Shown piece by piece: positions 318 through 29,554 of a DNA stretch of 31,948 nucleotides. Numbering within the stretch: the stretch's first letter is position 1; the number at the start of each line of letters is the position of its first letter. The position numbers and the translations under genes were made by a program. The stretch covers positions 1-31,948 of the IMG/VR virus record IMGVR_UViG_3300005805_006431. One strand, given 5' to 3'. The notes under the pieces were generated by a model, which worked only from the letters and a program-made list of their open reading frames with translations, was not told the DNA's origin and did not search any database. The stretch comes from a virus. Lineage: Duplodnaviria > Caudoviricetes.

Positions 318-348
318 CAAAGATAAGTATTATACGTTATAAATCAAA
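318..348 (-). promoter_or_regulatory. Bacteroidota primary-sigma promoter (-33 TTTG / -7 TAnnTTTG)
   Basis: Minus strand TTTG (348-345), 19-nt spacer, TATCTTTG (325-318), upstream of the GTG at 298. Confidence 0.65.
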
Positions 349-1992: not shown

Positions 1993-1994
1993 AT

Positions 1995-4585: not shown

Positions 4586-5502
4586 TCGTTATACTTTTCT
4601 ATTACTTTGTTTACTCTCTGTACTTGAGTATGACTGCCTAATACTTTGTAGTATCCATTAGTAGCTATGCGCTCTCTGTCTTTCTCTCCCTCACTGCTAA
4701 GGTAGTAATTTATTTTAGATATACATTCGTATATGCTAGAATAATATACAATATGTTCTCCTTCTACAAACAAATCATTCATGTGTGTATGTTCAGGAAG
4801 CTTATCAGTTATAACTAACTTTCCACAGGCCATTCCTTCAAATACTCTTCTGGTTACCTCTTGCCATCTGCTATGTTGAAATACTATCTTACCACTGTTT
4901 AAAAAATCTCCATACTCTTCTCCTGACAATCCATTTCTATTTATAAATCTATCTGGCATTATCTGAGATAGATAATCCATTAGGTCAGATGCATTTGGTC
5001 CTCTGGTAGTTCTTACTGGAGGTAGCTCATCAAAAGGTGTAAACGAACTATACGGTTTATGTATTGTGGTATCTGCAAAATGAGTCCACCATAAAGCATC
5101 CATACCCATTTCTTTATACTTTGCACAAGAATCATACGCAGGAGTGAGTATCAGATTAAATCTACTTGCCTTTACAGAGTTTCTCTCAAAGTTCTGTGGA
5201 TCATCTCCTGACTCCATTACCCAATATGATTTGGTAGATTTTGCTTTATCTAGAAGAGGAGAATCAAATCTTCCCCAATCCATGTAGAATACAATGTCAG
5301 GAACGAATTCTCCAGAATCAGAATCGCTAAGCATTTTGCTAATACCACTGTCTACGTATCTATCTCCCTCTCCAAACAAAGAGAATATCTTGGCTTCCCA
5401 TCCTCTTCGTTCAAATTCTCTCACTACACTTAGAGGAGTTGTCCAAACATCTGTGGGTCTATGCGCAAATATAAATGCTACTTTATTTCCTGAAAATGAC
5501 AT
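4564..5502 (-). CDS. GT-B glycosyltransferase, CgeB/Glyco_trans_1_2-like
   Basis: C-terminal TRRVFEGMACGKLVITD...LFVEGEHIVYY...RERIATNG...HT..RV is typical of CgeB-like GTs. Start taken at ATG 5502 (MSFSGNKVAF). Confidence 0.8.
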   Translation of the reverse strand: MSFSGNKVAFIFAHRPTDVWTTPLSVVREFERRGWEAKIFSLFGEGDRYVDSGISKMLSDSDSGEFVPDIVFYMDWGRFDSPLLDKAKSTKSYWVMESGDDPQNFERNSVKASRFNLILTPAYDSCAKYKEMGMDALWWTHFADTTIHKPYSSFTPFDELPPVRTTRGPNASDLMDYLSQIMPDRFINRNGLSGEEYGDFLNSGKIVFQHSRWQEVTRRVFEGMACGKLVITDKLPEHTHMNDLFVEGEHIVYYSSIYECISKINYYLSSEGEKDRERIATNGYYKVLGSHTQVQRVNKVIEKYNEWQKSSR

Positions 5503-6118
5503 CGTATGTGTTATTATAACTTTTATAATCGTACTCACCGTATCCCAAACTGAATAGGTATTGAATCATCTGCTCTTCCTTTTCCCAGAATCTGTGTTCT
5601 CTATGTATTCCTATTTCAATCATGATTCCTATAGGATGGTGGGTAGTAAGTAAATCTTTTGCTCCTTCAATAACCAAATACTCTGATTGCTCTACGTCTA
5701 CTTTGATTACGTCTGGGTAAACCAAGTCAAGTTCTTTTACAATACTTGACAATGATCTCCCCTGTATTATTTCCTTGCTTCCATAGTTGTGAATCTCAGA
5801 TAGAGTATTCCACCCAAAATTAGTTCCATCTACAGATATCTCTACTTCTCTATCTGTATCTACAACTGCACAATTGATAGTAGTAATTCTAGGATTATCT
5901 TTGTATTTCTCTGTGATATAATTATAGTATTCCTTAACAGGTTCAAACAATACACAGTTTATGTTTGGATTAATCCCTAGAACCATGTCAGTCATGGCTC
6001 CTACATTTGCACCAATATCATAAAACATTCCTCCTTCAGGAATTAATTCAGCAAGGAGTCTTGGTTTATCTCCTGCATCTCTTCTTATAACATCTTCCCA
6101 TGCTTTACAATCAGCCAT
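5483..6118 (-). CDS. FkbM family methyltransferase
   Basis: FYDIGANVG, LFEP, NCAV, IKVDVEQSE..VIEGA. Confidence 0.88.
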   Translation of the reverse strand: MADCKAWEDVIRRDAGDKPRLLAELIPEGGMFYDIGANVGAMTDMVLGINPNINCVLFEPVKEYYNYITEKYKDNPRITTINCAVVDTDREVEISVDGTNFGWNTLSEIHNYGSKEIIQGRSLSSIVKELDLVYPDVIKVDVEQSEYLVIEGAKDLLTTHHPIGIMIEIGIHREHRFWEKEEQMIQYLFSLGYGEYDYKSYNNTYDVIFRK

Positions 6119-7028
6119 CTATCAGTTGTTTGAACTTATTCATTACAGTTTCTGGTTTGAACTTATCTACCAGTTGTTTCATTTTATACTGTTCTTTTTT
6201 GAAGGACGCTAACATAACAAACAGTTCATTATGGGAAGCGTAATAAAATCCTTTGTCTTTTAGAACTTCTATATGATTTCTGTCTCTACATTGAATATTT
6301 GTAAATACAGGTTTATCTTGGTGTAGAAATTCACATATAGCCAATCCAAACGATTCTCCTTCAGTTCTACCATGCAACATCGCATCGCATGTATTGATGA
6401 ATGCTGTCTTACTAGCCATGTCTGTAGTAGCCTCTACGTATACTATATTTGGATGTGTGTACGTAAAAGGTTTGGTATTCATGAAAATAAACTTGATACC
6501 TCTTTCTGCTAAGGTACCTACCACATCTCCTAGGTATGGAACATCAAACTGATCGTATCCTCCATATCTACCTATGACTATATCTTCTGGAGAAAAGCCT
6601 AGTTGTTCTCTGAAGTCTTCTTTGATATCTGGTAGTGATACTATATGCGGAAGGTAGTCCACACCGTGCTTGTCTCCTAACCACTTACTCACAGCTACGT
6701 ATACGTCTCCGTGTTTATGTGAGGCATCAAACACAGCATGGACTATGTTCTTTACATTTGGAAATAGCTTTCCATCATCGAAACCTGCTTTGATTAGATA
6801 TGCAGCATCAAGAGAATATTTTGACGATAGCTGTTCAAAGTTATCGTACAGAATAACTCTATCTCCGAATCTTTCTGTGAACTTATCTAGTGCAGTTAGA
6901 TCAGATTCTTGTGGTGCAAATACGTACGAACTCCATCCCAAGATTCGCTCGGCATAATTGGCGTAGTCATATAATGCGACTTCTGTTCCTCGGATTCCGA
7001 GCTGATTGGAATGAAACGCGACCTTCAT
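6111..7028 (-). CDS. GT-B (GT4-like) glycosyltransferase
   Basis: Start at ATG 7028 (ATGA overlap with the upstream stop): MKVAFHSNQLGIRGTEVALYDY. C-terminal HGRTEGESFGLAICEF carries the E-x7-E motif. Confidence 0.8.
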   Translation of the reverse strand: MKVAFHSNQLGIRGTEVALYDYANYAERILGWSSYVFAPQESDLTALDKFTERFGDRVILYDNFEQLSSKYSLDAAYLIKAGFDDGKLFPNVKNIVHAVFDASHKHGDVYVAVSKWLGDKHGVDYLPHIVSLPDIKEDFREQLGFSPEDIVIGRYGGYDQFDVPYLGDVVGTLAERGIKFIFMNTKPFTYTHPNIVYVEATTDMASKTAFINTCDAMLHGRTEGESFGLAICEFLHQDKPVFTNIQCRDRNHIEVLKDKGFYYASHNELFVMLASFKKEQYKMKQLVDKFKPETVMNKFKQLIDG

Positions 7029-7648
7029 AGAGTTTCGTAAAATTTGTTTTGTAACTCTTGCCTTTGAATATCTTTGATATGCAATAGACAATAATCTTCT
7101 GTTTCAAAAGGAAGGATAGTATGGGTAGTGTGCCCAGTCAATCTCTCATGTACTTTATTTACCCAGTAGATCTCAGGCTTGTTCTTAATGATACGAGTCT
7201 GTGGATCTGGATAGTTAATGTATCCTTTATCATTCTTATTCCATCCCCACACTTCTAGATGCTTAGGAGTAAGTCCCTGTACTACGTTTACACGTGGCAC
7301 CATAAACATTTCTATATCTGGGTTATTGAATAAAATTTCTTTTAAAGTGAGAAGTAGGTTATCGTGTACATTCTCATCTGCATCTATAAAGAATATGTAC
7401 TCTTTGGTGCACTTGGACTTAGCGAAGTTTTTATGTGCTGCGAAGTCTCCGTCTAGTGAATGCTGATGTAAATTGATTCTATCTTCAAATACTGAAAGCG
7501 TCTGCTTTGTTGTTTCTTCTGTAGAGCTATCGTCTACTACAACGATCTCATCTTCAGGTTGAATATACTTCAACAGTCTTTCAAGTAGAGGACGCAAATA
7601 AATTGCTCCCTCATTATGTGTAGTTATGCAATATGATATACTTACCAT
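7025..7648 (-). CDS. Glycosyltransferase family 2
   Basis: ISYCITTHNE, EIVVVDDSS, FAAHKN, FFIDADE (DxD), PDPQTRI, VHERL. Confidence 0.88.
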   Translation of the reverse strand: MVSISYCITTHNEGAIYLRPLLERLLKYIQPEDEIVVVDDSSTEETTKQTLSVFEDRINLHQHSLDGDFAAHKNFAKSKCTKEYIFFIDADENVHDNLLLTLKEILFNNPDIEMFMVPRVNVVQGLTPKHLEVWGWNKNDKGYINYPDPQTRIIKNKPEIYWVNKVHERLTGHTTHTILPFETEDYCLLHIKDIQRQELQNKFYETL

Positions 7649-7652
7649 AGTT

Positions 7653-8096
7653 TTAAATTAAACCCGCGGCTTCAAGGGCTTGTGAAAAATATTCTTGGTC
7701 AAAATGAAGAACATGTTTCATGTCTGTTTTAAATTTATGATAACCCCCTTCCGATTTTTTGAAACGTTCTTTCTCATGCTCTTCAACCGGAACGTGAGGA
7801 GCGAATGCCCATTTCCAGTCATGTCTTGACGTACCATCTGGAAAAATGATTCCCACTCCCTCTTTGGTTATCGTAACAGGATACCAGACGAAGCCTTCTG
7901 AATCCGTGTATTTTATATCTTTAAATAGAGAGGGCAACATAGATTCGTAGGCTAGAATAGCTTCTGTGTTCTCTAAAAGCAGGGTGTTTGTGTTGAATCC
8001 GCACTGTAAACAGTCCCAGCTTATAATCCCATCATGATGTCTTTCATAACATAAAGGACTACCGCATCTTCTGCATTTTGTGAGTTGATCTTGCAT
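7653..8096 (-). CDS. Hypothetical protein with N-terminal zinc ribbon
   Basis: CRRC and CLQC pairs near the N-terminus; no other recognisable motif. Confidence 0.6.
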   Translation of the reverse strand: MQDQLTKCRRCGSPLCYERHHDGIISWDCLQCGFNTNTLLLENTEAILAYESMLPSLFKDIKYTDSEGFVWYPVTITKEGVGIIFPDGTSRHDWKWAFAPHVPVEEHEKERFKKSEGGYHKFKTDMKHVLHFDQEYFSQALEAAGLI

Positions 8097-8120
8097 ATTA
8101 GTCTTTTAAAATTTTTATTA

Positions 8121-8948
8121 TTATATTACTGCTCTACCTTTCATTTTCTCCCAATCTCTATCTTTACGCACCACATTGTTTGTGTCTCTAGCTGCTTTAA
8201 GCACATTGTTAACTGTGTTTAAGTTATCAGATAGATGTATTAATGCGGATAGGTCTTTAGGGAAGCAGTGTCCTCCAAAACCAAAATCACCATCATGTCC
8301 AGGCACAGACCAATGTGAATGTCCTAGTCTTTCATCATACACTGCATACTCCACTATCTTATCATAGTCCACATCTAACTGTTGACACATTTGATATATC
8401 TCATTGGCAAATGAAACTTTAACAGATAGAAAAGAGTTAATAAGATATTTTACCATCTCAGCATATGTGGAATCTGTTTTGATAATGTATGCATCTGGAA
8501 ATACCTTAGAGAATATTTGTTTCAGAGAAGTTATAGCTTTTTTAGGACCTCCCAATATAATCCTCTCTTGGTTATTATAATCATCTATAGCATTTCTTTC
8601 TGTAAGGAATTCCGGATTAAACGCTACAGTTATATTTTTAAATTTCTCATTCCATCCTTTTGTAGTGCCTGGAGGTATAGTAGATTTTACTACAACTATC
8701 TTATCTCCTTTCTCATTTATTGTAGATAACACCCCTTCAAGTATGTCTACATTACAACTACCATCTGCATTCATCGGAGTTGGTAGGCATAAGAATATAG
8801 TCTTGCATTCTGTGAGAATGTCCTCAAAAGTTGAATTTCTTTTTTCCACATCCAGATCGAATGTTTTTACTTCATAGTAATTCTTAAACTTTTGGTAAAC
8901 CGCATTACCTACAAATCCCTGTCCTATAATTCCTATCGTCTCAGTCAT
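8121..8948 (-). CDS. UDP-glucose/GDP-mannose dehydrogenase family protein (short, lacks C-terminal domain)
   Basis: GQGFVG Rossmann motif, CLPTP, KSTIPPGT, NPEFL, AEMVKY..N, GFGGHCFPKD with the catalytic Cys. Only 275 aa. Confidence 0.88.
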   Translation of the reverse strand: MTETIGIIGQGFVGNAVYQKFKNYYEVKTFDLDVEKRNSTFEDILTECKTIFLCLPTPMNADGSCNVDILEGVLSTINEKGDKIVVVKSTIPPGTTKGWNEKFKNITVAFNPEFLTERNAIDDYNNQERIILGGPKKAITSLKQIFSKVFPDAYIIKTDSTYAEMVKYLINSFLSVKVSFANEIYQMCQQLDVDYDKIVEYAVYDERLGHSHWSVPGHDGDFGFGGHCFPKDLSALIHLSDNLNTVNNVLKAARDTNNVVRKDRDWEKMKGRAVI

Positions 8949-9174
8949 TGAGTTGTTGTTTTAAATTCTCACCGTTTGTGTAAGTCCATGTCGATCCTTG
9001 AGGGTAACGTACTGCAGTTGTGCCTGATGAAGATACACTAAATTTAGATGTAGTTTCGTCAGTTACTTTTGATAATACTTCTTTAATACTGTCCCACTGT
9101 TTAGGAGTGGCAGTAAAATCATTACATGCTTCTACGAATCCCTTCATCCAAATTACGAATTCTTTTGATGTCAT
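8941..9174 (-). CDS. Small hypothetical phage protein
   Basis: 77 aa ORF packed between neighbours, ATG start, overlapping the downstream gene. Confidence 0.6.
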   Translation of the reverse strand: MTSKEFVIWMKGFVEACNDFTATPKQWDSIKEVLSKVTDETTSKFSVSSSGTTAVRYPQGSTWTYTNGENLKQQLND

Positions 9175-9177
9175 AGT

Positions 9178-10032
9178 TTATTTTTGTAGACTTTTTATAT
9201 ACTCTTTTAATTGGTCTTTAGGATTCCATCCCAATCTATCTAGAGCATCGTTATTTAATCTTAGAGTCTTCCTATAATTTCCTTTCACATCCTCTACATA
9301 TTTTCTATTGTTATACTCAAATAGATCAGCAACCTCATTTAGAGAGTAGTTACATCCTGTGCCAAGTTCCCATGCATCTTCATGTTTCTCATCACTCTCA
9401 GCTATTCTTATAAGCCCATCTACAATATCATCTATGTGTGTAAAGTCTCTGCGCTGTTCTCCATCCCCATGTATAATAATCGGCTCTCCTTTTGCTATAG
9501 CATGTCTCCATATTCCTATAACTGCTGCCATATGAGAATCTACTAACTCACCTGGTCCGTATACATTATAGAATCTAACTATCTCTGCATTAAGATTGTA
9601 TATGTTTTTATACAGTTTAATCCACTCCTCTCCCATGTGTTTAGTCATAGCATAAGGAGATAGTTCTGGATTGTGGTGCCTTGATGATGATCCTGAGTAT
9701 ATTAATTTTGATTTATTTCTCAGTGCGTAGTCAACTACTCTTTTTGTTCCTTCTACATTTACACTAAATGTCCAAGAAGGATTTTTAAATGAGGGCTGTA
9801 TTCTACTCAATGCTGCTAAGTGAAATATATACTTGTAATTTTTATCAGGAATATTATCCATAGCACGAACATCTCCACGAAGAAATTTGGCTCCTAATGG
9901 TTCTACGGACTTGGCTTCAATGCCTATAGACAAATCATCTATGACATCTACTTGATATCCGTTTTTAATTAGTCTATCAACCAAAGCATATCCTACGAAC
10001 CCACACCCTCCTGTTACTAATACATTTGTCAT
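9178..10032 (-). CDS. NAD-dependent epimerase/dehydratase (extended SDR)
   Basis: TGGCGFVG, HLAA, SGSSS, YAMTK (YxxxK), RFYNVYGP, GDGEQRRDFTHIDD. Confidence 0.92.
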   Translation of the reverse strand: MTNVLVTGGCGFVGYALVDRLIKNGYQVDVIDDLSIGIEAKSVEPLGAKFLRGDVRAMDNIPDKNYKYIFHLAALSRIQPSFKNPSWTFSVNVEGTKRVVDYALRNKSKLIYSGSSSRHHNPELSPYAMTKHMGEEWIKLYKNIYNLNAEIVRFYNVYGPGELVDSHMAAVIGIWRHAIAKGEPIIIHGDGEQRRDFTHIDDIVDGLIRIAESDEKHEDAWELGTGCNYSLNEVADLFEYNNRKYVEDVKGNYRKTLRLNNDALDRLGWNPKDQLKEYIKSLQK

Positions 10033-11318
10033 TGTGATACAGTTTCTGCTGATTTAGTTTTTAATTTAGGCAGAGCTAGAGGAACAGGAATACTAATCTT
10101 AGGAACATTGTTATTAAGTATCTCTGCTAGCTTCTCAACCATAGTATCAAAGCTAAATTGTGTTCTAGATATGTGCCCTTGTCTCTTACCCATTTCTACA
10201 TATTTGTTATAGTTCTCATATACCTCTTTCAAAGTCTCTTCCACTGATTTAGGATTAGCTTTGAACCAACGTGCCTCTTTCATTATAAACTTATTGGCAG
10301 CAGATTCATGCACGTTAGCAATCTCTCCTTTCACAAAGATATTGTATTCTGGATTTAAAAAGTCAAGGTGTCCACTAAATGGTGAAGCTATAATAGGTTT
10401 GCTAGATGCTGCTGAGAATTCTAGATAAGGTCTTCCAAATCCTTCGTTACCAACCAAAGCAAATGCTTTTACCTTTGGATGATTATACAGTTCATTCATC
10501 TCCTGATCTGTAAGATTTCCATACAGTAGATAAATGTTAGGCATGTCTCCACCAACAGTTTTTCTAATAGCATCTATACTGTCTAGTATTTGTTCTTCTT
10601 CTATGATGCTGAATCCAGCCATAGACGTTTTTAAAATCAATGCAGGACGCTTCTTTTTGTCTTTAAATGCTGTAAGGAATGATTTGATTAGAGTAGTAAG
10701 CTGCTTTCTATCTTCTCCTATATCTCCTTGTAACCAGTGGGCTACAGCAAGATAACAGAACTCTTCTTTTATGTCGGATAGATCAAAATTAGATTTATCT
10801 AGTCTTTTGAAGATGTTTGTATTCACTCCCTCAAACAATACTTGCACAGGCTTTTCTAGTTTAATTGTACCCGTCTTTTGTTTTGTTTTATCATCTAGTC
10901 TATCAAATACAGACTCTGAAGCAATCTTCTTTCCAAACTCCGAGGATACAATGTTGAAAGTCATTCTGTTAAGACCCTCTAGCATCTCTGCTGGAAGTAT
11001 AGTTGTCTCTACGAGTGCAGACAATCCTACATTCACTTTACCTACTGGTTGAAACTCATTAGATACGCTTATCTGCATCCATACGTCTGGTTGCTTAGCT
11101 AGCTTTCCATCTACAATAATTCTACTCAATAGATCTTTTTCCTCTGGAATATTTGGATCCAAAGCACCAAATGGAGTATCTCCCCACCTTTGTGACAATA
11201 GTTTTATATCCCACTCTTCTCCTTTTACTTTGATAAGAGCTTTTAAAAAATCTCTACTACGACCTCCGTATCCTGATGCAGTGTCTACTGGACAGGAGAC
11301 TACACATAATGGTTTCAT
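10029..11318 (-). CDS. GT-B glycosyltransferase family 4-like
   Basis: SGYG N-terminal loop, DRKQ, NEGFGRPYLEF (E-x7-E), SGHLDF. Confidence 0.8.
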   Translation of the reverse strand: MKPLCVVSCPVDTASGYGGRSRDFLKALIKVKGEEWDIKLLSQRWGDTPFGALDPNIPEEKDLLSRIIVDGKLAKQPDVWMQISVSNEFQPVGKVNVGLSALVETTILPAEMLEGLNRMTFNIVSSEFGKKIASESVFDRLDDKTKQKTGTIKLEKPVQVLFEGVNTNIFKRLDKSNFDLSDIKEEFCYLAVAHWLQGDIGEDRKQLTTLIKSFLTAFKDKKKRPALILKTSMAGFSIIEEEQILDSIDAIRKTVGGDMPNIYLLYGNLTDQEMNELYNHPKVKAFALVGNEGFGRPYLEFSAASSKPIIASPFSGHLDFLNPEYNIFVKGEIANVHESAANKFIMKEARWFKANPKSVEETLKEVYENYNKYVEMGKRQGHISRTQFSFDTMVEKLAEILNNNVPKISIPVPLALPKLKTKSAETVSQ

Positions 11319-11330
11319 TATAACAGTTTT
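11310..11330 (-). repeat. 21-nt direct repeat, copy 2 (AAAACTGTTATAATGAAACCA), spanning a GT4 start
   Basis: Identical to 12764-12784. Confidence 0.9.
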
Positions 11331-12772
11331 TATTGAATTGACATTGGGAATTTAATAGTCTTCTTTGGGCGATCTGTGATCTTTCTAATATGATATCTTT
11401 TTTTAGGCTTCCAATTGTTAATCACATTGGTTACGTTCTCTATAAAAGAATCTGCCATTTTACTACTAGACATCTTAGCTTCATCTGATGTTACCCACTC
11501 TCTTGCTTTCAATCCTCTGCGTTCTCTTTCTTCATTTCCCATCTTATACACTTCCATGATTGCATCTGCTGCATGACGGAAATCAACTCTGTCGTCAGAT
11601 ATGTATGGAGTTGGAGGGGATCCTTGAATACTCAAATTAGAAGGGAACACTGGAATAGCCCACTCACCGCACTTCTTATACTTACCAGCATGGTTAGTGC
11701 AGAAGCTTTCAGTGAACTCAATCCATTTACCATTCCCATCTTCGAATCTCATTTGATCCTGCATACCACCTGTCACGTTTGCAATAATCATCTTACCACA
11801 CATCATAGATTCAGTGAGAGATAGTCCCCAACCTTCATTAGAAGATAGAAGTATTGTAGCATCTGCTGAGTTATATAGCATGCGCATATATTCTACAGGA
11901 GCTCCTGGATTAGAGAAAATTACTTGATGTCCTCTGTCTCCTAACAGCGCATCTATTACTACAGGAAGATTTGTTCCGTTATCATCTACTTTATGAGTAT
12001 GTAGTACCAAACAACACTTGTCCGCTTTCTCTTTGGGTAGTTGATCTATAAAGTGCTTAAAAGCCAAGATAGTATCAGGAATAGATTTTCTTCTAATGTT
12101 ACGACTGTTGAATAGTACAACGAAATCGTAGTAGTCGCTTTGTAGTAAGCCCTGTTTAAAGTTTTGTAGCTTATTGTATTCAGCATGATCTTTCTTTATA
12201 GGATAGAAATGTTTTTCATCTATTCCGTGAGGGAAGTAGCTAAGGAACTTTTCGTCTGCATATTCTCCAAGTACTACTTTATTTAAGATATGCGTCTGCT
12301 TAGATATAGCTAGCATGGCATCACATGATCTGTAAAAACTCTTATTGTACAAGGGAGCAGGCTCACAATCCCAAATGTTAATATAGATCATTGGGATCTT
12401 TGTACGGATCTCATGTTCTATCTTAAACAACCACTCATAGTATCTTGGGTCTGTAATAAACACCAACGCATCTGGCTTCTCTGTTTTGATCAGGAATCTA
12501 ATCATATCAGCGTTACCATAACCATCAGTTGGATACAAGGTAACAGATGAATCTGGGATACCTGCTACTTCGTTTGTAGATTGGCATAGATCCATTCTTT
12601 TATTCTTGTCTGGGTGGTTGATGGCTCCCCCGACGATTGCATAGTTAAATGCGTGGGAAGTGCCTATTACAATGTCTCTAGATACGGTAGCTATTCCTGA
12701 GAAGAATCTTACGTCATCTCCAATGTACAATATCTTCTTTCTCTTTTCTCTTTCTATATAACCTGGTTTCAT
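11330..12772 (-). CDS. GT-B glycosyltransferase family 4-like
   Basis: FSGIATV, PHGID, NSRNIRRK, SSNEGWGLSLTESM (E-x7-E), TGGMQDQ. Confidence 0.85.
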   Translation of the reverse strand: MKPGYIEREKRKKILYIGDDVRFFSGIATVSRDIVIGTSHAFNYAIVGGAINHPDKNKRMDLCQSTNEVAGIPDSSVTLYPTDGYGNADMIRFLIKTEKPDALVFITDPRYYEWLFKIEHEIRTKIPMIYINIWDCEPAPLYNKSFYRSCDAMLAISKQTHILNKVVLGEYADEKFLSYFPHGIDEKHFYPIKKDHAEYNKLQNFKQGLLQSDYYDFVVLFNSRNIRRKSIPDTILAFKHFIDQLPKEKADKCCLVLHTHKVDDNGTNLPVVIDALLGDRGHQVIFSNPGAPVEYMRMLYNSADATILLSSNEGWGLSLTESMMCGKMIIANVTGGMQDQMRFEDGNGKWIEFTESFCTNHAGKYKKCGEWAIPVFPSNLSIQGSPPTPYISDDRVDFRHAADAIMEVYKMGNEERERRGLKAREWVTSDEAKMSSSKMADSFIENVTNVINNWKPKKRYHIRKITDRPKKTIKFPMSIQ

Positions 12773-16899: not shown

Positions 16900-19206
16900 T
16901 TAGTGTCCGTCTCTTAAGTTATGTGCCAGTGCTGGAGGTGCTACAAGTTCTAGTGATAACTGTGTAGTATTCTCCATACAGTCCTGCACTATTTTTGAAG
17001 CCTCCTCAGACTTACTCTCCTCTACTTCCATCACCAATTGGTCATGGATCTGTGCAATCACTTGGCCTTTTATTCCGTTTTTCTTGAACTCACGATTGAT
17101 TGCTATAGCTGCACGATTTACAATAGATGCTGCTAAGCTTTGAATCTGATAGTTCATTCCGTTGTTCAATCCGTTCTTATAATCTCTCACCATATTCAAT
17201 ATCACGTCTTTATCCAAATGAGCTTCCAATTTCTTTTGGAACTCCCATTCAAGTAGAGAATCTCCGAATTTATTGTAAAGATACTTAACTTTTGGTAAAT
17301 GACGAATTCTTCCTACCTGAGTTTTTATATACCCATTTTTCTTTACAAATACTTTGGAATCCTCCATCCACTTCTTTAAATTAGGAAATCCATTCAGGTA
17401 TCCGTCTATAAGCTTTTGCGCTTCTTTTGTAGACACCTCAATACTCTTTCCCAGTGCATAGGCTCCCATGCCATAGGGAATACCCAAAGAATATGCCTTG
17501 GCTTTCTGCCTGACATTATTGGCCATCTTTTTAAGATAGTTAGGAGCTTTCTTATCTGGAGAATATTGATCTAGCTTTTCTGTCTTGATAGCAATAGTAG
17601 AGTAGAAATCCCAACCATTTCTAAAGATGTCTTTGAGCCCCTCATCATTGGCTACGTGTGAGAATACTTTGGGTTCAAGAGATTCGTAGTCACAATCTAT
17701 GAAGATATTACCAGGTTTGGATATAAAGAATCCACGAATCATATTGGTATATTTTATCACAATAGGATCCTCTTCTCCATCTTCTTTTGGTCTCGGTAAT
17801 TGTTGCGCATCTGAACCGTATCTACCTGACACCGTGGCATGCTGCTTATAGTAAAAGTAGTACATACTGTCTTCTACCTTATCTATAAATCTATCCATGT
17901 AGGTAGATTTGATCTTAAGTAGTTTATTGTAGATACGTAAATTCTTAGCCCATTCGTACTTATCCGCAATAGATTGTATAAAATCATCATCAAACTTATC
18001 CTTGCCTTTATCCGTAGCTGATAGTGGCTTTAATCCAAGAACAGTGAACGCTATGCTACCCAAGTGGTCTTTCGATTGGATATTGAAAAATTGCCCTTCT
18101 TGACTCTCTTTCCAAAGCCTCATGCTGATTTTCATTATGATATCGGAATCGAGTAACATAGCGTCACCTGTCTTGAAAAACTCTTTAACGGGGCCTTCCT
18201 CTAGCAGTGCTAAAGATGCAGCAGATATCTTATACTTACCTGTCTTTTCTGATATAGGTAAATTGTATTTATACTCTTTTACAATCTCTTGTGCATAGTT
18301 TCCTTTATGGCTAGGAGGAAATGTTTCCAATGCTTTGTCTATAACCCACTCTTTTACTTTTGGATTCTGTAGAAGTTCTTTGATTACTATGCTCCTGTAT
18401 TTGTTTAGATCTTCTATGATCTCTTCTCTTGATTTAAGCATGAGGGGCATATCAATCATCACACCGTTACTCTCCATAGGTATAGTGACTTCCTTGTATA
18501 AAGGCATCACTTCATCTTCAAAGAAGAACTTCTCTAATCCTTCAGTCTTTAGTGTTTTTATGTAGTAGTTGTAAACACGTAGAGTAAGATCAGTATCTGC
18601 ACAAGCATATTTTGATAGGATGGGCATATCTGCTTTCCATATCTCGTAGTTCTCTTTTGTGGTTGTACCACCATTAGCTTTTATAGATTCTTTCAGTAAC
18701 ACCTGCTCTTCATTGGCTTCCTTCTCCATATCTAATCCCAAGTGTTCCTGTATTGCTACTGCTATATCTTTCAATGCAAAAGATCCTCCGAATCCTTCAC
18801 CTGCTCCTTCTTCTGATACTGTGTGTACTAATAGAAGTGTATCTGCGTATATACTGGGCACTATATCCACGCCATAGAATTCTTTTACGAATCTAGAATC
18901 GAATGACAAGTTATGCCCTATGATTTTTTTATTGAGTAAAAGAGTGATTACTTTTTTTGCAAGATCGTGACAAGATTCTCCCATGATAGTACTGTCTACA
19001 AGCTCTCCATCTTTCATTATCATGGTTGGCATGTAGTATCCTACTCCTACTTCTCCTGATACGGATAGTCCTATTATCTTACCTGTTCTGGGATTAAGCG
19101 ATGTAGTCTCTGTATCAAATGCAATTAACTCATTGCTTTTAATATGAGACACCATCTCTCTCAACGTCTCCGGAGTATCTACCGTGACGTATCTTTTTTC
19201 CTGCAT
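16900..19206 (-). CDS. polA: Family A DNA polymerase with 3'-5' exonuclease (no 5'-3' exonuclease domain)
   Basis: ExoI AFDTETT, ExoII GHNLSFD, ExoIII YACAD; TVSGR; motif A DYESLEPK; motif B RQKAKAYSLGIPYG; NYQIQS; motif C QIHDQ. Confidence 0.93.
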   Translation of the reverse strand: MQEKRYVTVDTPETLREMVSHIKSNELIAFDTETTSLNPRTGKIIGLSVSGEVGVGYYMPTMIMKDGELVDSTIMGESCHDLAKKVITLLLNKKIIGHNLSFDSRFVKEFYGVDIVPSIYADTLLLVHTVSEEGAGEGFGGSFALKDIAVAIQEHLGLDMEKEANEEQVLLKESIKANGGTTTKENYEIWKADMPILSKYACADTDLTLRVYNYYIKTLKTEGLEKFFFEDEVMPLYKEVTIPMESNGVMIDMPLMLKSREEIIEDLNKYRSIVIKELLQNPKVKEWVIDKALETFPPSHKGNYAQEIVKEYKYNLPISEKTGKYKISAASLALLEEGPVKEFFKTGDAMLLDSDIIMKISMRLWKESQEGQFFNIQSKDHLGSIAFTVLGLKPLSATDKGKDKFDDDFIQSIADKYEWAKNLRIYNKLLKIKSTYMDRFIDKVEDSMYYFYYKQHATVSGRYGSDAQQLPRPKEDGEEDPIVIKYTNMIRGFFISKPGNIFIDCDYESLEPKVFSHVANDEGLKDIFRNGWDFYSTIAIKTEKLDQYSPDKKAPNYLKKMANNVRQKAKAYSLGIPYGMGAYALGKSIEVSTKEAQKLIDGYLNGFPNLKKWMEDSKVFVKKNGYIKTQVGRIRHLPKVKYLYNKFGDSLLEWEFQKKLEAHLDKDVILNMVRDYKNGLNNGMNYQIQSLAASIVNRAAIAINREFKKNGIKGQVIAQIHDQLVMEVEESKSEEASKIVQDCMENTTQLSLELVAPPALAHNLRDGH

Positions 19207-22828: not shown

Positions 22829-24181
22829 CTAACTTTTAGTGAACTTTTTCTTTAGTGCCTGAATGTCATCTGCACTAAAATCTCCCCTTCCTCCATCTTC
22901 TTGATTTTCAGAATCTTCATCGTAAAGATCCTCAGATATATCTATATACCCCTTGTTTAAGTCAATTTTGGCAGAGTATGTCATGCCATCTGGACCTAAC
23001 CTAGATTTCATAATATGGAACCTTCCGGTACCGTTTATTTTATCTCTTCTGCGTCTGGATAATGATACACTGAAGTCTGCTATCATCATTTTCTGAAAAC
23101 TACCCGCTACCTTATCCCCTTCGATAATCTCATCCTTTGCACCCATACGGTTGATTTGGGACGGACACACGATTGGGATGTGCATATCTTTGGCCATTCC
23201 TTTAACGTCTGTATAGATGTCGTCTATCTCCTCCTTGCTTTCTTTCCTCAATTTACGAGGCTTTAAAAGGTCAGGGTAGTCTATGATTACTATATCAGGG
23301 ATAAAGTCGCTATTGGCCTCTAATTGCTTTAGATGGGATTCTATACTATCTAGGGAGGCTCTGCCTGGAGAATACTCCTTGATCACTATTTTACCCTTCA
23401 AATCCCTCACTGCCTTCTCCACTTCCTTTCTGTGGTGCTTCAGCATCTTCACTTCCACTCCCGTTAGGATAGAATCGATCTTTTTACCTACATACCTCTC
23501 ATCTAACTCTAGGGTGTAATAAACCACTTTAAAACCCATTTTAAGGCAATTTGCGGCTATGTTACACACTACGGTAGACTTTCCTATTCCTGGAGGGGCG
23601 AAGAGAAGCATGAGGTTCCCTTGGCTTATACCACCGTCTGTGATGTCATTGAAGACTTTCCAGGGGAACGGTACCTTCCTATCTTCTTCCTCTCTGAATC
23701 TGGATTCGATATCCTTGTCGTATTCGTGACCGATATTCTTCTCCATTCCTGCTTTGAGGGCATCGTCAATCATCTTTCTAATGCCTTCAAACTCACCGTT
23801 CTTTAAAAGGTCTACTGAAGATAGTAGGGCTTCTTTTAATCGCTGGTTTCTACAGAAATTGAAGAACTCCTCTTTCACATACTCCACATCATCTTGGGTG
23901 GCTATGTAGGACTGTTTAAGTTCCTCTTTTATAGATACTTGCAATACTTCATTCTTCTCCTTCTTGAGTTCTATCTTGAGAACCTCCATCGTAGGATAGG
24001 TATGATATTTTGCGTAATATTCTAGGACTGTGTTAACAATCCATTTATGTGCTGGTGATTCAAAGTAATCAGCAGTTATTACATCTGCAATATTCTGTAA
24101 GAATAGTTTATCGCTGAGGAGCGAGGAGAGTACTTTGATCTGAAACTGGTGGCCGTATTGGTTTAATTTGCTTGCTGTCAT
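22829..24181 (-). CDS. Replicative DNA helicase, DnaB / T4 gp41-like (SF4)
   Basis: Walker A APPGIGKS, YTLEL, Walker B IIDYPDLL, PSQINR, KSRLG. Confidence 0.9.
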   Translation of the reverse strand: MTASKLNQYGHQFQIKVLSSLLSDKLFLQNIADVITADYFESPAHKWIVNTVLEYYAKYHTYPTMEVLKIELKKEKNEVLQVSIKEELKQSYIATQDDVEYVKEEFFNFCRNQRLKEALLSSVDLLKNGEFEGIRKMIDDALKAGMEKNIGHEYDKDIESRFREEEDRKVPFPWKVFNDITDGGISQGNLMLLFAPPGIGKSTVVCNIAANCLKMGFKVVYYTLELDERYVGKKIDSILTGVEVKMLKHHRKEVEKAVRDLKGKIVIKEYSPGRASLDSIESHLKQLEANSDFIPDIVIIDYPDLLKPRKLRKESKEEIDDIYTDVKGMAKDMHIPIVCPSQINRMGAKDEIIEGDKVAGSFQKMMIADFSVSLSRRRRDKINGTGRFHIMKSRLGPDGMTYSAKIDLNKGYIDISEDLYDEDSENQEDGGRGDFSADDIQALKKKFTKS

Positions 24182-24188
24182 AACTCCA

Positions 24189-25226
24189 TTAATAATTATT
24201 CAAAGTAGCAAAAACATTTATCCATGTATCTAAATTCACTATCGCAGCGCCCATCTTATCGTGATGATAAAGCTTGATGAAATCTAGCTTTTTAAACGAT
24301 GGTGTTTTAGTATGGTACGCTTCGACTATTTGATTTTCAACATCTTCCATAATGTTAGGCTCTCTGATGTTCATAATCTTGTAGAAGATCTCTAACTGTT
24401 TATGAATATTCAAAACTTTTTGATACAAATGTGATTTTTTCGGAGGATTATTACAGATATCATAGATATCATTTAATGTTTTTCTCTCTTCATTAGATAG
24501 TATCTCAAAAAGCTTTACTGCACTTTTTTCTCCCATACCAACTACTCCTGGAACATTATCCGATGTATCGCCTGCTAATACTTTTAGAAGTATGAAATTA
24601 TTAGGATGCACTCCGTATTCTTGCAGCACATCTACAGTTTCATAGATCTTTTTCTTAGTAGGACTGTACAGCGACACTCTATCATTGACTAGCTGCATGA
24701 AATCATTATCAGATGACATGATATACACTTTAGCATCATCATACTCTTTATGTATTCTCCCTGATAGGAATCCTATTACGTCATCTGCTTCTAGTTTGTC
24801 AAATGACATAAGAGTTAAAGGGAGACATTTTAAGTAGTCTACTAAACGAACTAGTTGATTATACTGTGCATCATCTTCATCCGATTTATTATTAAAGGAT
24901 TTATAATTCATGATGCGCCCAGTGTCTCTAGTTCCTTTGTAACCCTGATAGAGATACTTCCTGTTTACCGACCCGCCTTCACCGTCAAAGACGATTACTA
25001 CGCGAGTCGGTGTTAACAGTTTTATCGCATGTCCCAGAGATTTGAGAAATCCTACTAGCCCTCCTACTTCATTTCCTGATAAGTTCACTCTGTCCACAAC
25101 AGCGAAGCTTCTTAAGAAAGTATTCATACCATCTATAATAAGAACTCTACTATTATGGTGTAGGCTGGTAGGCTTCTCGGTTTTATTTATACGAGAAAAT
25201 ATGTCGAGCAGTTTATCTTTATTCAT
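24189..25226 (-). CDS. 5'-3' exonuclease / flap endonuclease (Pol I N-terminal domain / T4 RNase H-like)
   Basis: LIIDGMN, VFDG, YKGTR, EADDVI, SSDNDF, GDTSDNVPGVVGMGEKSA (H3TH). Start taken at ATG 25226. Confidence 0.9.
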   Translation of the reverse strand: MNKDKLLDIFSRINKTEKPTSLHHNSRVLIIDGMNTFLRSFAVVDRVNLSGNEVGGLVGFLKSLGHAIKLLTPTRVVIVFDGEGGSVNRKYLYQGYKGTRDTGRIMNYKSFNNKSDEDDAQYNQLVRLVDYLKCLPLTLMSFDKLEADDVIGFLSGRIHKEYDDAKVYIMSSDNDFMQLVNDRVSLYSPTKKKIYETVDVLQEYGVHPNNFILLKVLAGDTSDNVPGVVGMGEKSAVKLFEILSNEERKTLNDIYDICNNPPKKSHLYQKVLNIHKQLEIFYKIMNIREPNIMEDVENQIVEAYHTKTPSFKKLDFIKLYHHDKMGAAIVNLDTWINVFATLNNY

Positions 25227-26292
25227 CACCAGAGGTGTTGTCAACTACACTACCGTTATCTTCTTCTTCGATTACATCATAATCTTCACTGCCTAGGATT
25301 CTAAGCCATTCTGATGAATGCTCCTTTTTGTATTGATCGATATACTTTTTGTCGTCATCGATGAATCCATGAGGAGTTGCAATGATTCTACCTACAGTAG
25401 TTACTCCAGTGATGTGATTTTTATCTACGGAGATCTTGGTACGTTTTGCAAACTCTACCTCTTTACCATTCTTGGTAGCTTTGATTTTATTTGTACCAGC
25501 TCCAGTAACATTACCGAATGTAACTACGAGAGTGGAATCTAGGAACATAGTGTTTCCACCTTTGTTCTTTAGCTTAGGCATCTCCATAGGCACAGATGGT
25601 TTCTCTACCCACACTTTATTTACTACAATAAGAGTGTTTGTATATGGAGAAGTTTCTTTGCGTGATCTAACGATACGTTGATTTACAAAGTTTCCAAACT
25701 GCACCGACATTGCACCTGCATTCCATTCATTGTTATTCTTATTGGACTCTACTGACATTCTACATGGAATAGATCCTACGGAATCCCAAAGGAACACTAG
25801 ATCAACAGGTAGATTACCTTTAGCCTGCTCATCTAATAGATCCATGATAAACGCTGCTACATCTTCGATGGTGCTGAGATGGTCTCTATCAACATAGATG
25901 AAATCACCTCCATAAGAAATCTCACCTGTTTCTTTATTTACTGTCTCTTCTACTTTAAAGCCCATGATCTTAGCATGGTGCCAATCCCATTTCATCTCTG
26001 TAATAATGAATACAGGAAGCTTCCCCATCTTTTGAACATTCACTGCAGCCTCAATCATTGCAGTAGTTTTTCCAGTATCACTGTGACCACGGAATGTAAT
26101 TACGTGTCCGTGAGGAATACCAGGCAGACTAATAGCATTTTGAAACGCAGGAGAAAGCGGAATCCATTCTTGTTTTTTGAAAGATACTCCTTCTGTCAAA
26201 TTCTTAGATTTTTTAAAGTTCTCTAGATTAAAGGACATACCTTTCTTAAGGGCATCTCCAACAGCACCCTTAATATTCTTTTTTTCAGACAT
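25219..26292 (-). CDS. RecA/UvsX-like recombinase
   Basis: Walker A GHSDTGKT, Walker B FLWDSVG, KGG motif, KNH. Lies between SSB and the exonuclease. Confidence 0.8.
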   Translation of the reverse strand: MSEKKNIKGAVGDALKKGMSFNLENFKKSKNLTEGVSFKKQEWIPLSPAFQNAISLPGIPHGHVITFRGHSDTGKTTAMIEAAVNVQKMGKLPVFIITEMKWDWHHAKIMGFKVEETVNKETGEISYGGDFIYVDRDHLSTIEDVAAFIMDLLDEQAKGNLPVDLVFLWDSVGSIPCRMSVESNKNNNEWNAGAMSVQFGNFVNQRIVRSRKETSPYTNTLIVVNKVWVEKPSVPMEMPKLKNKGGNTMFLDSTLVVTFGNVTGAGTNKIKATKNGKEVEFAKRTKISVDKNHITGVTTVGRIIATPHGFIDDDKKYIDQYKKEHSSEWLRILGSEDYDVIEEEDNGSVVDNTSGDE

Positions 26293-26302
26293 ATACTATG
26301 AT

Positions 26303-27133
26303 TTATTCTTCGTTAAATAACTCGTCAAACTTAGAAGCGACATTACCTGGTTTACTATCTGGAGTAAACGGAGTATCATCTTCTTCCTCTGCTACAGCAA
26401 TAACCTCTTCTGTTTGTTCAGTGGTAGGTGTTTCTGCTGCTTCTTGAGGATTAATGTAGTTTTGGAGCATTGTCTTGATTTCATCATAAGTGTACTTCTT
26501 ATACACCTCTGTGATTTCTTTCTGATTCTCCAACACTTTTTGTACGAGTGCTGCATCTTCTGAGATAGCAGATACGTTTCTCTTAGGAGTTACGTTTACA
26601 GCTACATAGTTTACATCACGCTTACCGATCTTGATAACATCGTTGTAACCTTCAATGGTTAAATCTGTACCATTGGTTACATCAGCAATGTCACCGAAGT
26701 CATCATCTGCCATGATGCTTAGTAGTTTTTCGTAAGTGGTCTTGTTAAATTCCCAAATACGTGCACCCAAGTTTTCTTCACCGCGTACTAATACTTGTGC
26801 ATAGTACTTGGTTCTTGGTCTGAGTTTTGATGCGAGAGCTTTGCTGTCCTCAGTGTTTTCATTGTAAAGTTCTTTTACCAACTGAACTACTGGATCTTGC
26901 TCTCCGAAGTTTTCAAGATTGTAAACACTTTTCTTGAAAATGTTGTACTGGTGAAAACTTACTTCTGCAAATGGAAAATCTCTGTTAGATTTTCTTGGTA
27001 GGATTCTGACTACTTGCTTTCCGAGTTTTGGTTTCCAGAAAAGAGCTGCGTAATCGATTTTTTCGTAAGCTGATGTTGAGGATTTAGATTGCAGCTTAGA
27101 CAATCTTTCTTTGATTAGATCAATCTTAGACAT
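26303..27133 (-). CDS. Single-stranded DNA-binding protein (T4 gp32-like)
   Basis: FWKP...VRILP, DPV, YGD-like DFGDIAD..GTDL, acidic tail ending FDELFNEE. Adjacent to the recombinase. Confidence 0.75.
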   Translation of the reverse strand: MSKIDLIKERLSKLQSKSSTSAYEKIDYAALFWKPKLGKQVVRILPRKSNRDFPFAEVSFHQYNIFKKSVYNLENFGEQDPVVQLVKELYNENTEDSKALASKLRPRTKYYAQVLVRGEENLGARIWEFNKTTYEKLLSIMADDDFGDIADVTNGTDLTIEGYNDVIKIGKRDVNYVAVNVTPKRNVSAISEDAALVQKVLENQKEITEVYKKYTYDEIKTMLQNYINPQEAAETPTTEQTEEVIAVAEEEDDTPFTPDSKPGNVASKFDELFNEE

Positions 27134-27186: not shown

Positions 27187-27636
27187 TTATTTTGCAGAAT
27201 TATTTTTATCCACATTGATGATCTCGTGGATTTTGGTCTGCAGCTTTACAAACTTGTCGTTTTGGGTAAGCAGGATGCTATTACGGTAATCTTCCCAATT
27301 GATTTTGAAGTTGGGATCCCGTACTCCATTGTTGAGGGATTCTACAAGCTTGTTGAGAGAGTTGATAGTGTACAGTACGTTGCACTCCTTCCTGCGGTGC
27401 ATTAGAATAGTGTTGGGAAGGATTGATTTTTTGTCTACGTTTTCAGCTTCAATATTGTATGTGCAGACGTATTCGTTTGGATTGCTAGTTTCTAGCACGA
27501 AAATCTTCGCATAGATGATCTCATACCGACTTTGGATCTCATCTATCGTAGCCTGTAGATCTTCTTTTTTCGTAAACGTGCAGAATAGCTTGTTCAAGTA
27601 ATCTATTGTTGATTCAAAAAATTCATTGTATATCAT
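27187..27636 (-). CDS. Hypothetical protein in the replication module
   Basis: 149 aa (NKLFCTF...CTYNI...TILMHRRKE.N.LYTINSLN...W..Y.N). No function recognised. Confidence 0.75.
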   Translation of the reverse strand: MIYNEFFESTIDYLNKLFCTFTKKEDLQATIDEIQSRYEIIYAKIFVLETSNPNEYVCTYNIEAENVDKKSILPNTILMHRRKECNVLYTINSLNKLVESLNNGVRDPNFKINWEDYRNSILLTQNDKFVKLQTKIHEIINVDKNNSAK

Positions 27637-27665
27637 AGATAAATATTAAAAAAGTGAGGTAAAAT

Positions 27666-29003
27666 TTATAAAATCTTCATTTCTTGATAGTTAGGACCGT
27701 ATTTGCATGAAACTTTGTATCCATCCTGCTGTAATATGGCTTGAATGTCACAAAGAATCTGCTTTCCGTCCTTTTTGCTGTAGTCAAACAGGAAAGAATC
27801 ATAGTTGTATAAAACAAGCTTAGTCTGCTTATCCTCCAGTAATTTAAGTATATCATTGAGTATCAGTATGTTACGTTCTGTTTCGTAGTTTTGTAATACA
27901 TAAGGCAGCACTTGTGTTTTAGAAGTTATCCCCCTAATAGGTCTTTTTGATAGAAAACTTTCAATATACCCCTTATTTTTATAGAAATTCCACAGAGATT
28001 CCTTTAACTTCTTAACTTTTGCAAAAAATGGAATGTCCTCTATTTCTTTTTTCACAGAATCAGTGTACAGCAATTTGAATGTCAAAGCCTTGCTCTCCTC
28101 ATACTGTTCTCTAGTTATTTCATCTGTACCAAAATAGTACTTGGCTAGGTGAGTATGGATATCGTCATTCTCAAAGCTATACCCGCATTGATACGCTAAT
28201 ATACGAACGTGATACGATTGGAAATCAAACTCAAGCATCATGTCGTTAGAAGGTATAAATGCAGCCCTGCTACCGTCATTCTTATTTAATGCAGCGAAGT
28301 TGATACCATTGAATGAATTAGAGGGTCTTCCTGTGACAGTGAAGAGATTGTAGTGGGTATAGATAATGTCTGATTTAACTCCCATTAAAAGCGATTTAGG
28401 CTCGTAATGCTGCATAAATCGTTCATTGTTGATCTTTATACCTATCTTCTCTATATTGCTGAATATGGTGGTTGCTAGGTCTCCATACAGCTTGTAATAC
28501 TTTGATTTGAACCATGCTGTATCAAATTTGAGATCAGCTACAAGATTCTCATATTTCTCAAAGTGTTTGCATATAGGAATGATCTTGTTTATGTCTGGTC
28601 TAAATTCATACTTCTGCTGAAAGAATCTATGCGCCATGGTATTGTACTTAGATTCCTCCAGCACCTCTCCTGTGGATAGATACTTTCCCAGACTCACGCA
28701 GTATACATTATTTTCTCTATTAACAAATGACTTGAATCTTTTTGCATCTATAGCATAGATGTTGCCTGGTTTGCTAATAATAAAGGATAATACTTGTTCT
28801 TTTGAAAGAGAGAAGGCCTCTGTGTGATCTACGCACAGGATAAATCCCATTCTAGACCTAAAAGGCTTTATGTATACTAATGATATCTCTGCTATGCTTG
28901 GATGGCAGTTATCATTGAATGGAATAATATCAATGAAGCAATTGGTAAAATCGTATTGGGAGAATTTCTGCAGCTGCTGTTCTGTCTCAATAATATAATA
29001 CAC
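27666..29003 (-). CDS. Short, divergent family A polymerase-like protein
   Basis: TVTGRPSN, SRAAF, motif A LEFDFQSYHVR, DIH, motif B SKALTFKLLY, LQNYET, motif C YNYDSFLFD. N-terminus lacks recognisable Exo motifs. GTG start. Confidence 0.8.
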   Translation of the reverse strand: MYYIIETEQQLQKFSQYDFTNCFIDIIPFNDNCHPSIAEISLVYIKPFRSRMGFILCVDHTEAFSLSKEQVLSFIISKPGNIYAIDAKRFKSFVNRENNVYCVSLGKYLSTGEVLEESKYNTMAHRFFQQKYEFRPDINKIIPICKHFEKYENLVADLKFDTAWFKSKYYKLYGDLATTIFSNIEKIGIKINNERFMQHYEPKSLLMGVKSDIIYTHYNLFTVTGRPSNSFNGINFAALNKNDGSRAAFIPSNDMMLEFDFQSYHVRILAYQCGYSFENDDIHTHLAKYYFGTDEITREQYEESKALTFKLLYTDSVKKEIEDIPFFAKVKKLKESLWNFYKNKGYIESFLSKRPIRGITSKTQVLPYVLQNYETERNILILNDILKLLEDKQTKLVLYNYDSFLFDYSKKDGKQILCDIQAILQQDGYKVSCKYGPNYQEMKIL

Positions 29004-29019
29004 TTACATAACCTTTGTA

Positions 29020-29051
29020 CAAATATAGGTTATTTTGCGTATTGAGACAAA
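29020..29051 (-). promoter_or_regulatory. Bacteroidota primary-sigma promoter
   Basis: TTTG (29051-29048), 20-nt spacer, TATATTTG (29027-29020), upstream of the short PolA. Confidence 0.7.
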
Positions 29052-29554
29052 TTTTTAAAATAATTCTTTACTCCCACTATTGTTTTTTCTACAATATCAA
29101 GAGTTCTTTTATTTGTATCTATTATTCCGTATATTGGGAGATTGGGATCAGATAAATCATCATATAGGGCCCCTGTTATCTTCCAATCGAACTTTGCAGT
29201 AACATACAGAGGGTCTCTTGTAGCTTTGTTATAATCTACTTCGTTTACTTCAGTGATTGTTTCTAATCCACTGTTTACTCTTTTCGTTACGTACCTAGTG
29301 AAACTGCCTTTGTTATAATCCTGTTGTGTAGGCATTGGGTAAAAGAACGCAGGAGGTACAGATTGATTTGATACAAACGGAGATGTAGCAGGAACTAATT
29401 CAACTGTAGATGTAGAATACTGTTTGCCTGAAAAGAATCTATTATCATTTGTAGCATAGTAATATCCTGTGTACGGAACTTTAGTGCTTTTAATTATGTA
29501 CTCACTTCCTGAGGTATATTTTACTGCTAATATTTCTGATAATGGGTAATACAT
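29030..29554 (-). CDS. Hypothetical phage protein
   Basis: 174-aa Tyr-rich ORF immediately downstream of the large structural-like gene. Confidence 0.7.
   Translation of the reverse strand: MYYPLSEILAVKYTSGSEYIIKSTKVPYTGYYYATNDNRFFSGKQYSTSTVELVPATSPFVSNQSVPPAFFYPMPTQQDYNKGSFTRYVTKRVNSGLETITEVNEVDYNKATRDPLYVTAKFDWKITGALYDDLSDPNLPIYGIIDTNKRTLDIVEKTIVGVKNYFKNLSQYAK

Follow-up and report, generated by a model that had tools for sequence, protein, structure and literature searches.

Our analyses show that the open reading frame (ORF) at positions 27,666–29,003, minus strand, of the virus record IMGVR_UViG_3300005805_006431, a 31,948-base genome fragment of a tailed phage (Caudoviricetes) analysed over its whole length (the window), codes for a member of the divPolA1 family, a reduced protein related to DNA polymerase I. 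This family has been described computationally, with no experiment, by Yutin, Tolstoy, Mutz, Wolf, Krupovic and Koonin (2024, Virol J 21:200, PMC11348598), and the window gene is a further member of it rather than a new kind of system. We give roughly an even chance to the proposal, built on sequence comparison and a predicted model, that divPolA1 would be a primer-dependent, distributive and non-proofreading short-patch DNA polymerase, a split Pol I working with a separate flap nuclease, in which the residue His265 would form a rebuilt and probably leaky sugar gate. A first-pass annotation of the window had seen in this gene a candidate primer- or RNA-synthesizing or specialist polymerase, a reading that our results support in part.

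Family membership and domain layout

A separate PolA-like gene of 445 amino acids (aa) had been recognized at this position, and profile and pairwise searches agree: Pfam DNA_pol_A matches aa 210–350 of the protein (E 3.4e-9), phmmer finds Klenow (E 7e-4), and phmmer and hhalign both align its DFQSYHVR with DYSQIELR of E. coli. In profile comparisons, 229 columns of the family align to E. coli Pol I (probability 95.6%) but motif A alone to the window's own conventional PolA (probability 1.3%), so that “paralog”, the term used in the first-pass annotation, is a loose one. The predicted model has a Klenow-like fold, with 429 of its 445 residues aligning to the 601-residue Klenow chain and motifs A, B and C present. 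The GTG start of the ORF is correct, the N-terminus of the relatives being MYYIIET. Over 98% of its length, the protein is 35.2% identical (E 1e-64) to gp001 of Flavobacterium phage vB_FspM_immuto (hereafter immuto), the prototype of the family in PMC11348598. As defined in the text of that paper, divPolA1 comprises 14 phages and keeps the palm residues, with a truncated thumb and a dead exonuclease; downstream, its loci carry replication genes, and a regular polymerase (family A, B or C) is encoded near GroEL/GroES. The window protein presents every one of these published features and nothing separates it from the family. The words “steric”, “histidine” and “ribonucleotide” are absent from the main text of the paper, whose Fig. 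5 alignment or supplements may show the histidine discussed below, and our literature searches found no bench work on divPolA1.

Compared with those 14 phages, the family is far larger here. Of 6429 candidates from a word-index search, 2182 were relatives, and a full HMMER scan yielded 696 divPolA1 clusters at 50% identity (E up to 1e-30). Among 50,697 annotated phage records, divPolA1 proper occurs in six, namely four records of immuto, Microcystis phage Mel-JY01 and the 484-kb phage LR756508; the remaining eight matches are weak ones to ordinary PolAs.

The N-terminal domain retains an exonuclease fold, with matches to ExnV1, RNase D and RRP6 spanning aa 1–189 of the predicted model (VIA), but its catalytic acids are not conserved: columns 25, 27, 90 and 151, mapped to Exo I/II/III by eye, are variable or hydrophobic in relatives, and a Pfam scan gave no exonuclease domain match in the protein. 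The earlier statement that no Exo motifs are visible was thus right for the acidic residues, which are replaced, and overlooked the surviving fold. It had also called the protein minimal without noticing the cause, since the small size results from the loss of the thumb. Only 33 residues separate E185 from Y218, versus 118 between E541 and Y659 in E. coli Pol I, and the inclusive span of this stub in 150 relatives is 16–36 residues (median 34).

The rebuilt active site

Column counts refer to 150 cluster representatives that are 27–52% identical to the query, 149 of them readable at some columns. D260 and D402 correspond to D705 and D882 of E. coli Pol I, and K305, F309 and Y313 to K758, F762 and Y766, whereas R226 occupies the R668 site and is kept together with the other minor-groove residue, Q371 (Q849). 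D260 and R226 are invariant (150/150 each), as are D402, K305 and E374 (149/149 each), and Q371 (148/149), Y313 (146/149) and F309 (143/149) nearly so. Both catalytic aspartates and the Lys and Tyr of motif B are therefore kept, as first annotated, and the variation of the aspartates that would have pointed to an inactive relic was not seen.

Glu is regarded as the typical sugar-gate residue of family A. In divPolA1 this canonical steric gate of motif A is replaced by His, in the window His265 (codon CAC, 28211–28209), as the first-pass annotation had read it. The exchange is conserved across the family, where 148 of the 150 representatives have His, 2 have Gln and none has Glu, Gly or Ala; the same His occurs in 130/130 closer proteins and in 55/55 readable motifs at loci found via a small neighbour gene. 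Its codons in relatives are both CAC (41) and CAT (40), and synonymous codons also occur at D260, D402 and K305. The two relatives with Gln (P0138 and P0142, reading YQV and YQI) offer natural controls for an assay. Other contacts differ as well from those of the Klenow and Bst large fragments. The I709 site (Y264) is Tyr or Phe in 145/150, the R754 site (Y301) Tyr in 106/150 and Arg in 9/150 (22/210 in another set of relatives), the H881 site (Y401) Tyr or Phe in 149/149, and the Q708 site Ala, Ser or Gly, while the H734 site is Tyr in 37/149 and N845 is kept in 122/149. At the E883 site we found Ser in 115, Ala in 32 and Gly in 2, so that motif C, correctly read in the window as YDSF (Y401-D402-S403-F404) in place of HDEL, is not conserved as YDS. 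The polymerase is clearly under purifying selection, with a dN/dS of 0.15 (146 close pairs, range 0.03–0.25), its neighbours having lower values (0.06–0.10). Active-site conservation and dN/dS together indicate that the pocket was rebuilt once and then kept.

One further change sets divPolA1 apart from the Klenow and Bst enzymes, the new invariant Glu374 at the A852 site. In Bst polymerase, E658, R615, Q797 and D830 form a single electrostatic network, according to the text of PMC10520511. Since divPolA1 keeps the Arg, Gln and Asp of such a network and has gained a Glu one turn after the Gln, the pattern suggests that Glu374 replaces the lost gate carboxylate. One helical turn past Q371, it would take over the role of E710 in the R668/Q849 network, and His265, a bulky residue above the intact F309, would go on serving as a sugar gate, though probably a leaky one.

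The likeness of motif C to that of RNA polymerases (RNAPs), taken in the first-pass annotation as a sign of RNA synthesis, does not bear this weight. Many members of the family, immuto and Mel-JY01 among them, have YDA, and an ordinary PolA, that of Bacillus phage JL, combines DYSQLELR with VHDSI; for these reasons the argument from motif C fails on the sequences compared. With T7-type RNAPs (T7, N4 RNAPII, mitochondrial), divPolA1 shares palm and fingers ancestry, the lack of a Glu gate and, in the window member, D-S-F in motif C. However, those enzymes have a Gly gate (Gly542 in T7 RNAP) and HDS where divPolA1 has His and Y-D-S/A/G, and divPolA1 displays neither whole-chain likeness to them nor their N-terminal promoter-binding domain.

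The replication module, linked genes and promoters

The window genes, all on a single strand, follow the order 785-aa gene, 174-aa gene, divPolA1, 149-aa gene, gp32-like SSB, RecA, 5'-3' exonuclease and DnaB; further along lie ribonucleotide reductase, thioredoxin, dUTPase, a full exo+ PolA, GroES, GroEL and many glycosyltransferases (Table 1). The first-pass annotation had thus correctly placed the polymerase at the head of an SSB-RecA-flap nuclease-helicase module in a genome that also has a complete PolA. In 32 related loci with 6 kb downstream, RecA follows the polymerase in 32, SSB and DnaB in 31 each and the flap nuclease (FEN) in 30, and divPolA1 keeps its module-head position in all checked genomes, whatever the replicase.

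Table 1. Positions of divPolA1, its sequence elements and associated genes (window coordinates unless a locus is named)
Feature	Position	Strand	Remark
divPolA1 gene (dead 3'-5' exonuclease fold, thumb stub, fingers, palm)	27666..29003	-	445 aa
Exonuclease-fold N-terminal domain	28437..29003	-	aa 1 to ~189, end approximate
Thumb stub	28350..28451	-	E185 to Y218
Motif A, D260-F-Q-S-Y264-H265	28209..28226	-	His at E710 site, aromatic at I709 site
Motif B, Y301, K305, F309, Y313	28065..28103	-	Y301 at R754 site
Q371 and E374	27882..27893	-	register from alignment
Motif C, Y401-D402-S403-F404	27792..27803	-	
TATATTTG, matches TAnnTTTG	29020..29027	-	upstream of divPolA1 gene
TATTTAT, probable late-promoter element	27639..27645	-	upstream of small gene
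Always-linked small gene	27187..27636	-	149 aa as called; ferredoxin/ACT-like N-half
gp32-like SSB	26303..27133	-	Pfam gp32 E 9.8e-21
RecA/UvsX-like recombinase	25219..26292	-	
Stand-alone 5'-3' exonuclease (flap nuclease)	24189..25244	-	Pfam 5_3_exonuc_N E 2.1e-29
DnaB-like replicative helicase	22829..24181	-	
Conventional exo+ PolA, beside GroES/GroEL	16900..19206	-	Glu gate, Leu at 762 site, HDQ; Pfam PolA E 2.9e-63, exo E 7.8e-12
Sigma-like gene copies	L107:14825-15628	-	
	L006:33174-33872		immuto gp118
	L121:3042-3743		
	L129:8397-9185		

That replicase varies. Among 10 records, a full PolA was found in immuto (gp199), G001 and G006, a PolB in G004, G005, G007, Mel-JY01 and LR756508, a PolA match within a short frame in G002, and none in the 68% complete G003. 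The conventional PolA is thus a swappable replicase, whose place PolB takes in relatives. The PolA match of G002 is confined to a 203-aa frame (G002:C1:48053-48538), and in LR756508 two frames, of 1022 and 625 aa, share the PolB (W02:C1:260623-266900), both cases being split or interrupted genes. In the window's conventional PolA, Leu occupies the F762 position (KAYSLGIPYG), and the thumb region, 209 residues against 118, is unusually long.

No match to primase families was found among the 34 window ORFs scanned, in agreement with the first-pass annotation, a result that is uninformative alone because the record is only a fragment. A DnaG-type primase occurs in 5/5 long contigs of relatives, and Mel-JY01, LR756508 and immuto (gp091) encode one; the five DnaG copies of relatives have intact Zn ribbon, EGxFD and DxD (the motif pattern missed one of the five loci). 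None was found in two relative fragments, 40% and 52% complete. Since an ordinary primase is encoded by related phages, divPolA1 is likely a short-patch helper DNA polymerase and not a primase substitute.

The small gene that follows divPolA1 probably has its conserved core starting at the TTG at 27597–27595, a start codon being present just before this core in 60/60 loci. It lies at most three genes downstream of the polymerase in 72/76 loci, and the polymerase lies upstream in 54/54 neighbour loci with 1.5 kb upstream, a set in which some contigs recur from the polymerase-locus set. Both genes occur in the same 6 of the 50,697 annotated records, and the dN/dS of the small one is 0.07. In its model (pLDDT 85.6), the first 12 residues are disordered and one half is alpha/beta and ferredoxin/ACT-like; none of its structure matches was telling. 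As SSB, FEN and DnaB are equally tightly linked, and their distance correlations with the polymerase reach 0.91–0.94 versus 0.89 for the small neighbour, linkage does not single out the latter. In one subclade, a gene of ~350–450 aa with a KGEI-x-E-V-K pattern and no Pfam match, which looks like a nuclease or mobile gene, sits between the two (L069:1981-3210, L048, L068, L079, L062, L070, L049, L039). On the other side, relatives of the 174-aa gene (29030–29554; no Pfam or PHROG match) lie directly upstream of the polymerase at most loci. The Mel-JY01 module contains a 428-aa gene matching the S-adenosylmethionine lyase family (E 4.4e-10; L005:21493-22779), and 12 kb of the window (positions 330–12772) are taken up by genes for glycosyltransferases and methyltransferases and by nucleotide-sugar genes; the first two GT1-like genes of this block belong to the core of the four genomes compared.

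Two promoter-like elements flank the polymerase. The upstream one matches TAnnTTTG, the consensus promoter element of Bacteroidetes hosts; the exact pattern precedes 14/73 related genes and is not universal. TATTTAT is found upstream of the small neighbour in 43/66 related loci and of the polymerase in 1/73. In immuto, where 170 of the gene starts were examined, it stands before 18/70 starts in the structural half versus 10/100 in the other, it is coding-strand biased in G001, G004 and G005 (75:10, 54:14 and 38:15), and TATTTAT(A) lies 18–38 nt upstream of many structural genes, including, in NC_055915, terL, portal, sheath, tube, hub, tape measure and tail spike. Read on the opposite strand, TATTTAT(A) corresponds to the T4 late promoter TATAAATA. 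Its enrichment before structural genes and its strand bias in three genomes indicate that TATTTAT is probably a late promoter of this phage group. A conserved gene of 230–270 aa, “hypothetical” in immuto, has a weak match to sigma-70 region 2 (E 6e-5) and is a candidate late sigma factor that could read TATTTAT. In NC_055915, around 67600–75100, each gene of a run of small genes follows a near-identical GTTG...TATATTTAG(G/A)TATCAATAATTAAAA element, a predicted repeated strong early promoter cassette.

Gap filling, priming and the meaning of the His gate

In the short-patch reading, divPolA1 would serve the SSB, recombinase, flap nuclease and helicase encoded beside it by filling gaps and by extending 3' ends, among them those delivered by the recombinase, until the main replicase steps in. 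Without a thumb it would have no grip on the duplex and would add few nucleotides per binding. Together with the 5'-3' exonuclease, which in these phages is a separate gene unlike in Pol I, it might act as a split Pol I in primer replacement and D-loop extension. Such a fixed helper would explain how main replicases are swapped between families while the module stays. This reading builds on the predicted fold, the kept catalytic and minor-groove residues, the thumb loss, purifying selection, the fixed place at the module head, and the separate DnaG and family A or B replicase of relatives. Several points weigh against it. To our knowledge, T4-type replisomes complete Okazaki maturation without such an enzyme. 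Moreover, ordinary gap-filling needs no rebuilt pocket, yet several substrate contacts are altered jointly, with His for E710, Tyr/Phe for I709, Tyr for both R754 and H881, and Ala/Ser/Gly for Q708, and the change I709F raises ribonucleoside triphosphate (rNTP) use by Klenow (PMC4854868).

These changes lead to a tentative idea, possible but well short of probable, of a natural family A polymerase rewired for ribonucleotides, with His/Tyr for the Glu-Ile gate and a new Glu at an RNAP-like acid position. Alone or with the small neighbour, it would be a phage initiator that makes or lengthens RNA-containing primers, uncoupling priming from the replicase and leaving PolA, PolB and PolC free to be swapped. 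In a related reading, which we regard as unlikely, the pocket would admit rNTPs, and DnaG primers or invading 3' ends would be lengthened with RNA or mixed chains and passed to any replicase. The total loss of the Glu gate, the aromatic I709 site and the retention of divPolA1 beside both PolA and PolB replicases favour it, as does the spacing of E374 (Q371 + 3), which mirrors that of T7 RNAP D787 (H784 + 3), H784 being equivalent to Q849. Yet His is larger than Glu, not smaller, and F762 is kept where T7 RNAP has Met635. Although I709F alone suffices to raise rNTP use in Klenow, the Taq-derived gate variants in the table of PMC4854868 all carry E615G, and His can itself serve as a gate, as in PolC, albeit in a different fold (PMC13492167).

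It is rather improbable that divPolA1 is a second primase in the manner of CCPol-MP of SCCmec, in which, according to PMC7581432, a PolA can prime only together with a small protein whose gene adjoins those of the polymerase and a helicase. Here the small neighbour would bind the polymerase and restore the template grip lost with the thumb; de novo initiation by the pair would serve origin firing or fork restart, with the lagging strand left to DnaG. The loci are alike (reduced PolA, small gene, helicase gene), and the neighbour's linkage, shared records and low dN/dS fit. However, relatives have an intact DnaG, the linkage of other module genes is just as tight and their distances follow those of the polymerase at least as closely, the neighbour has its own late-type motif, and a gene of ~410 aa separates the pair in one subclade. 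Furthermore, most of the exonuclease domain is missing from CCPol, in which E710 and F762 are retained (PMC7581432), whereas divPolA1 keeps the exonuclease fold and has at E710 a His, a residue that thus plays no part in the precedent; and MP is predicted to be largely beta, in contrast to the alpha/beta neighbour.

More doubtful still is a special-substrate nucleotidyl transferase adding one nucleotide at a DNA end (a modified nucleotide, a diphosphate donor, 3'-end capping or pyrophosphorolytic editing). R754 and H734 act in phosphate binding, and the frequent Tyr at both sites, the small Q708 residue and the missing thumb, with metal ligands and K758 invariant, would suit it; by contrast, the retained template and minor-groove readers (R668, Q849, N845, Y766) fit templated synthesis, and some members still have Arg at the R754 site. 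A catalytically dead scaffold that loads helicase or recombinase, kept only for its fold, would agree with the low similarity to other PolAs and the loss of thumb and exonuclease, but is very improbable given two Asp and a Lys that are invariant in such divergent relatives, with synonymous codons at each site. Least credible of all is a single-subunit RNAP for middle or late genes, despite the DSF motif, the absent Glu gate and a phage-specific TATTTAT that needs some reader, as the promoter and sigma-factor evidence counts against a role in transcription.

To the published family we add here the pattern of Glu374 with an aromatic I709 site, the motif C counter-example and this evidence against transcription. 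divPolA1 belongs to the core genes of a very large aquatic phage group, and a cultured member, immuto, makes the family testable. Its hundreds of natural His-gate clusters offer a direct test of how a sugar gate can be rebuilt and of whether a DNA polymerase can drift towards RNA synthesis. Should divPolA1 prove a plain gap-filler, the gain would be modest, namely a Pol I that is split and has no thumb; should it tolerate ribonucleotides or prime, it would explain the swapping of replicases in these phages and offer a scaffold for engineering.
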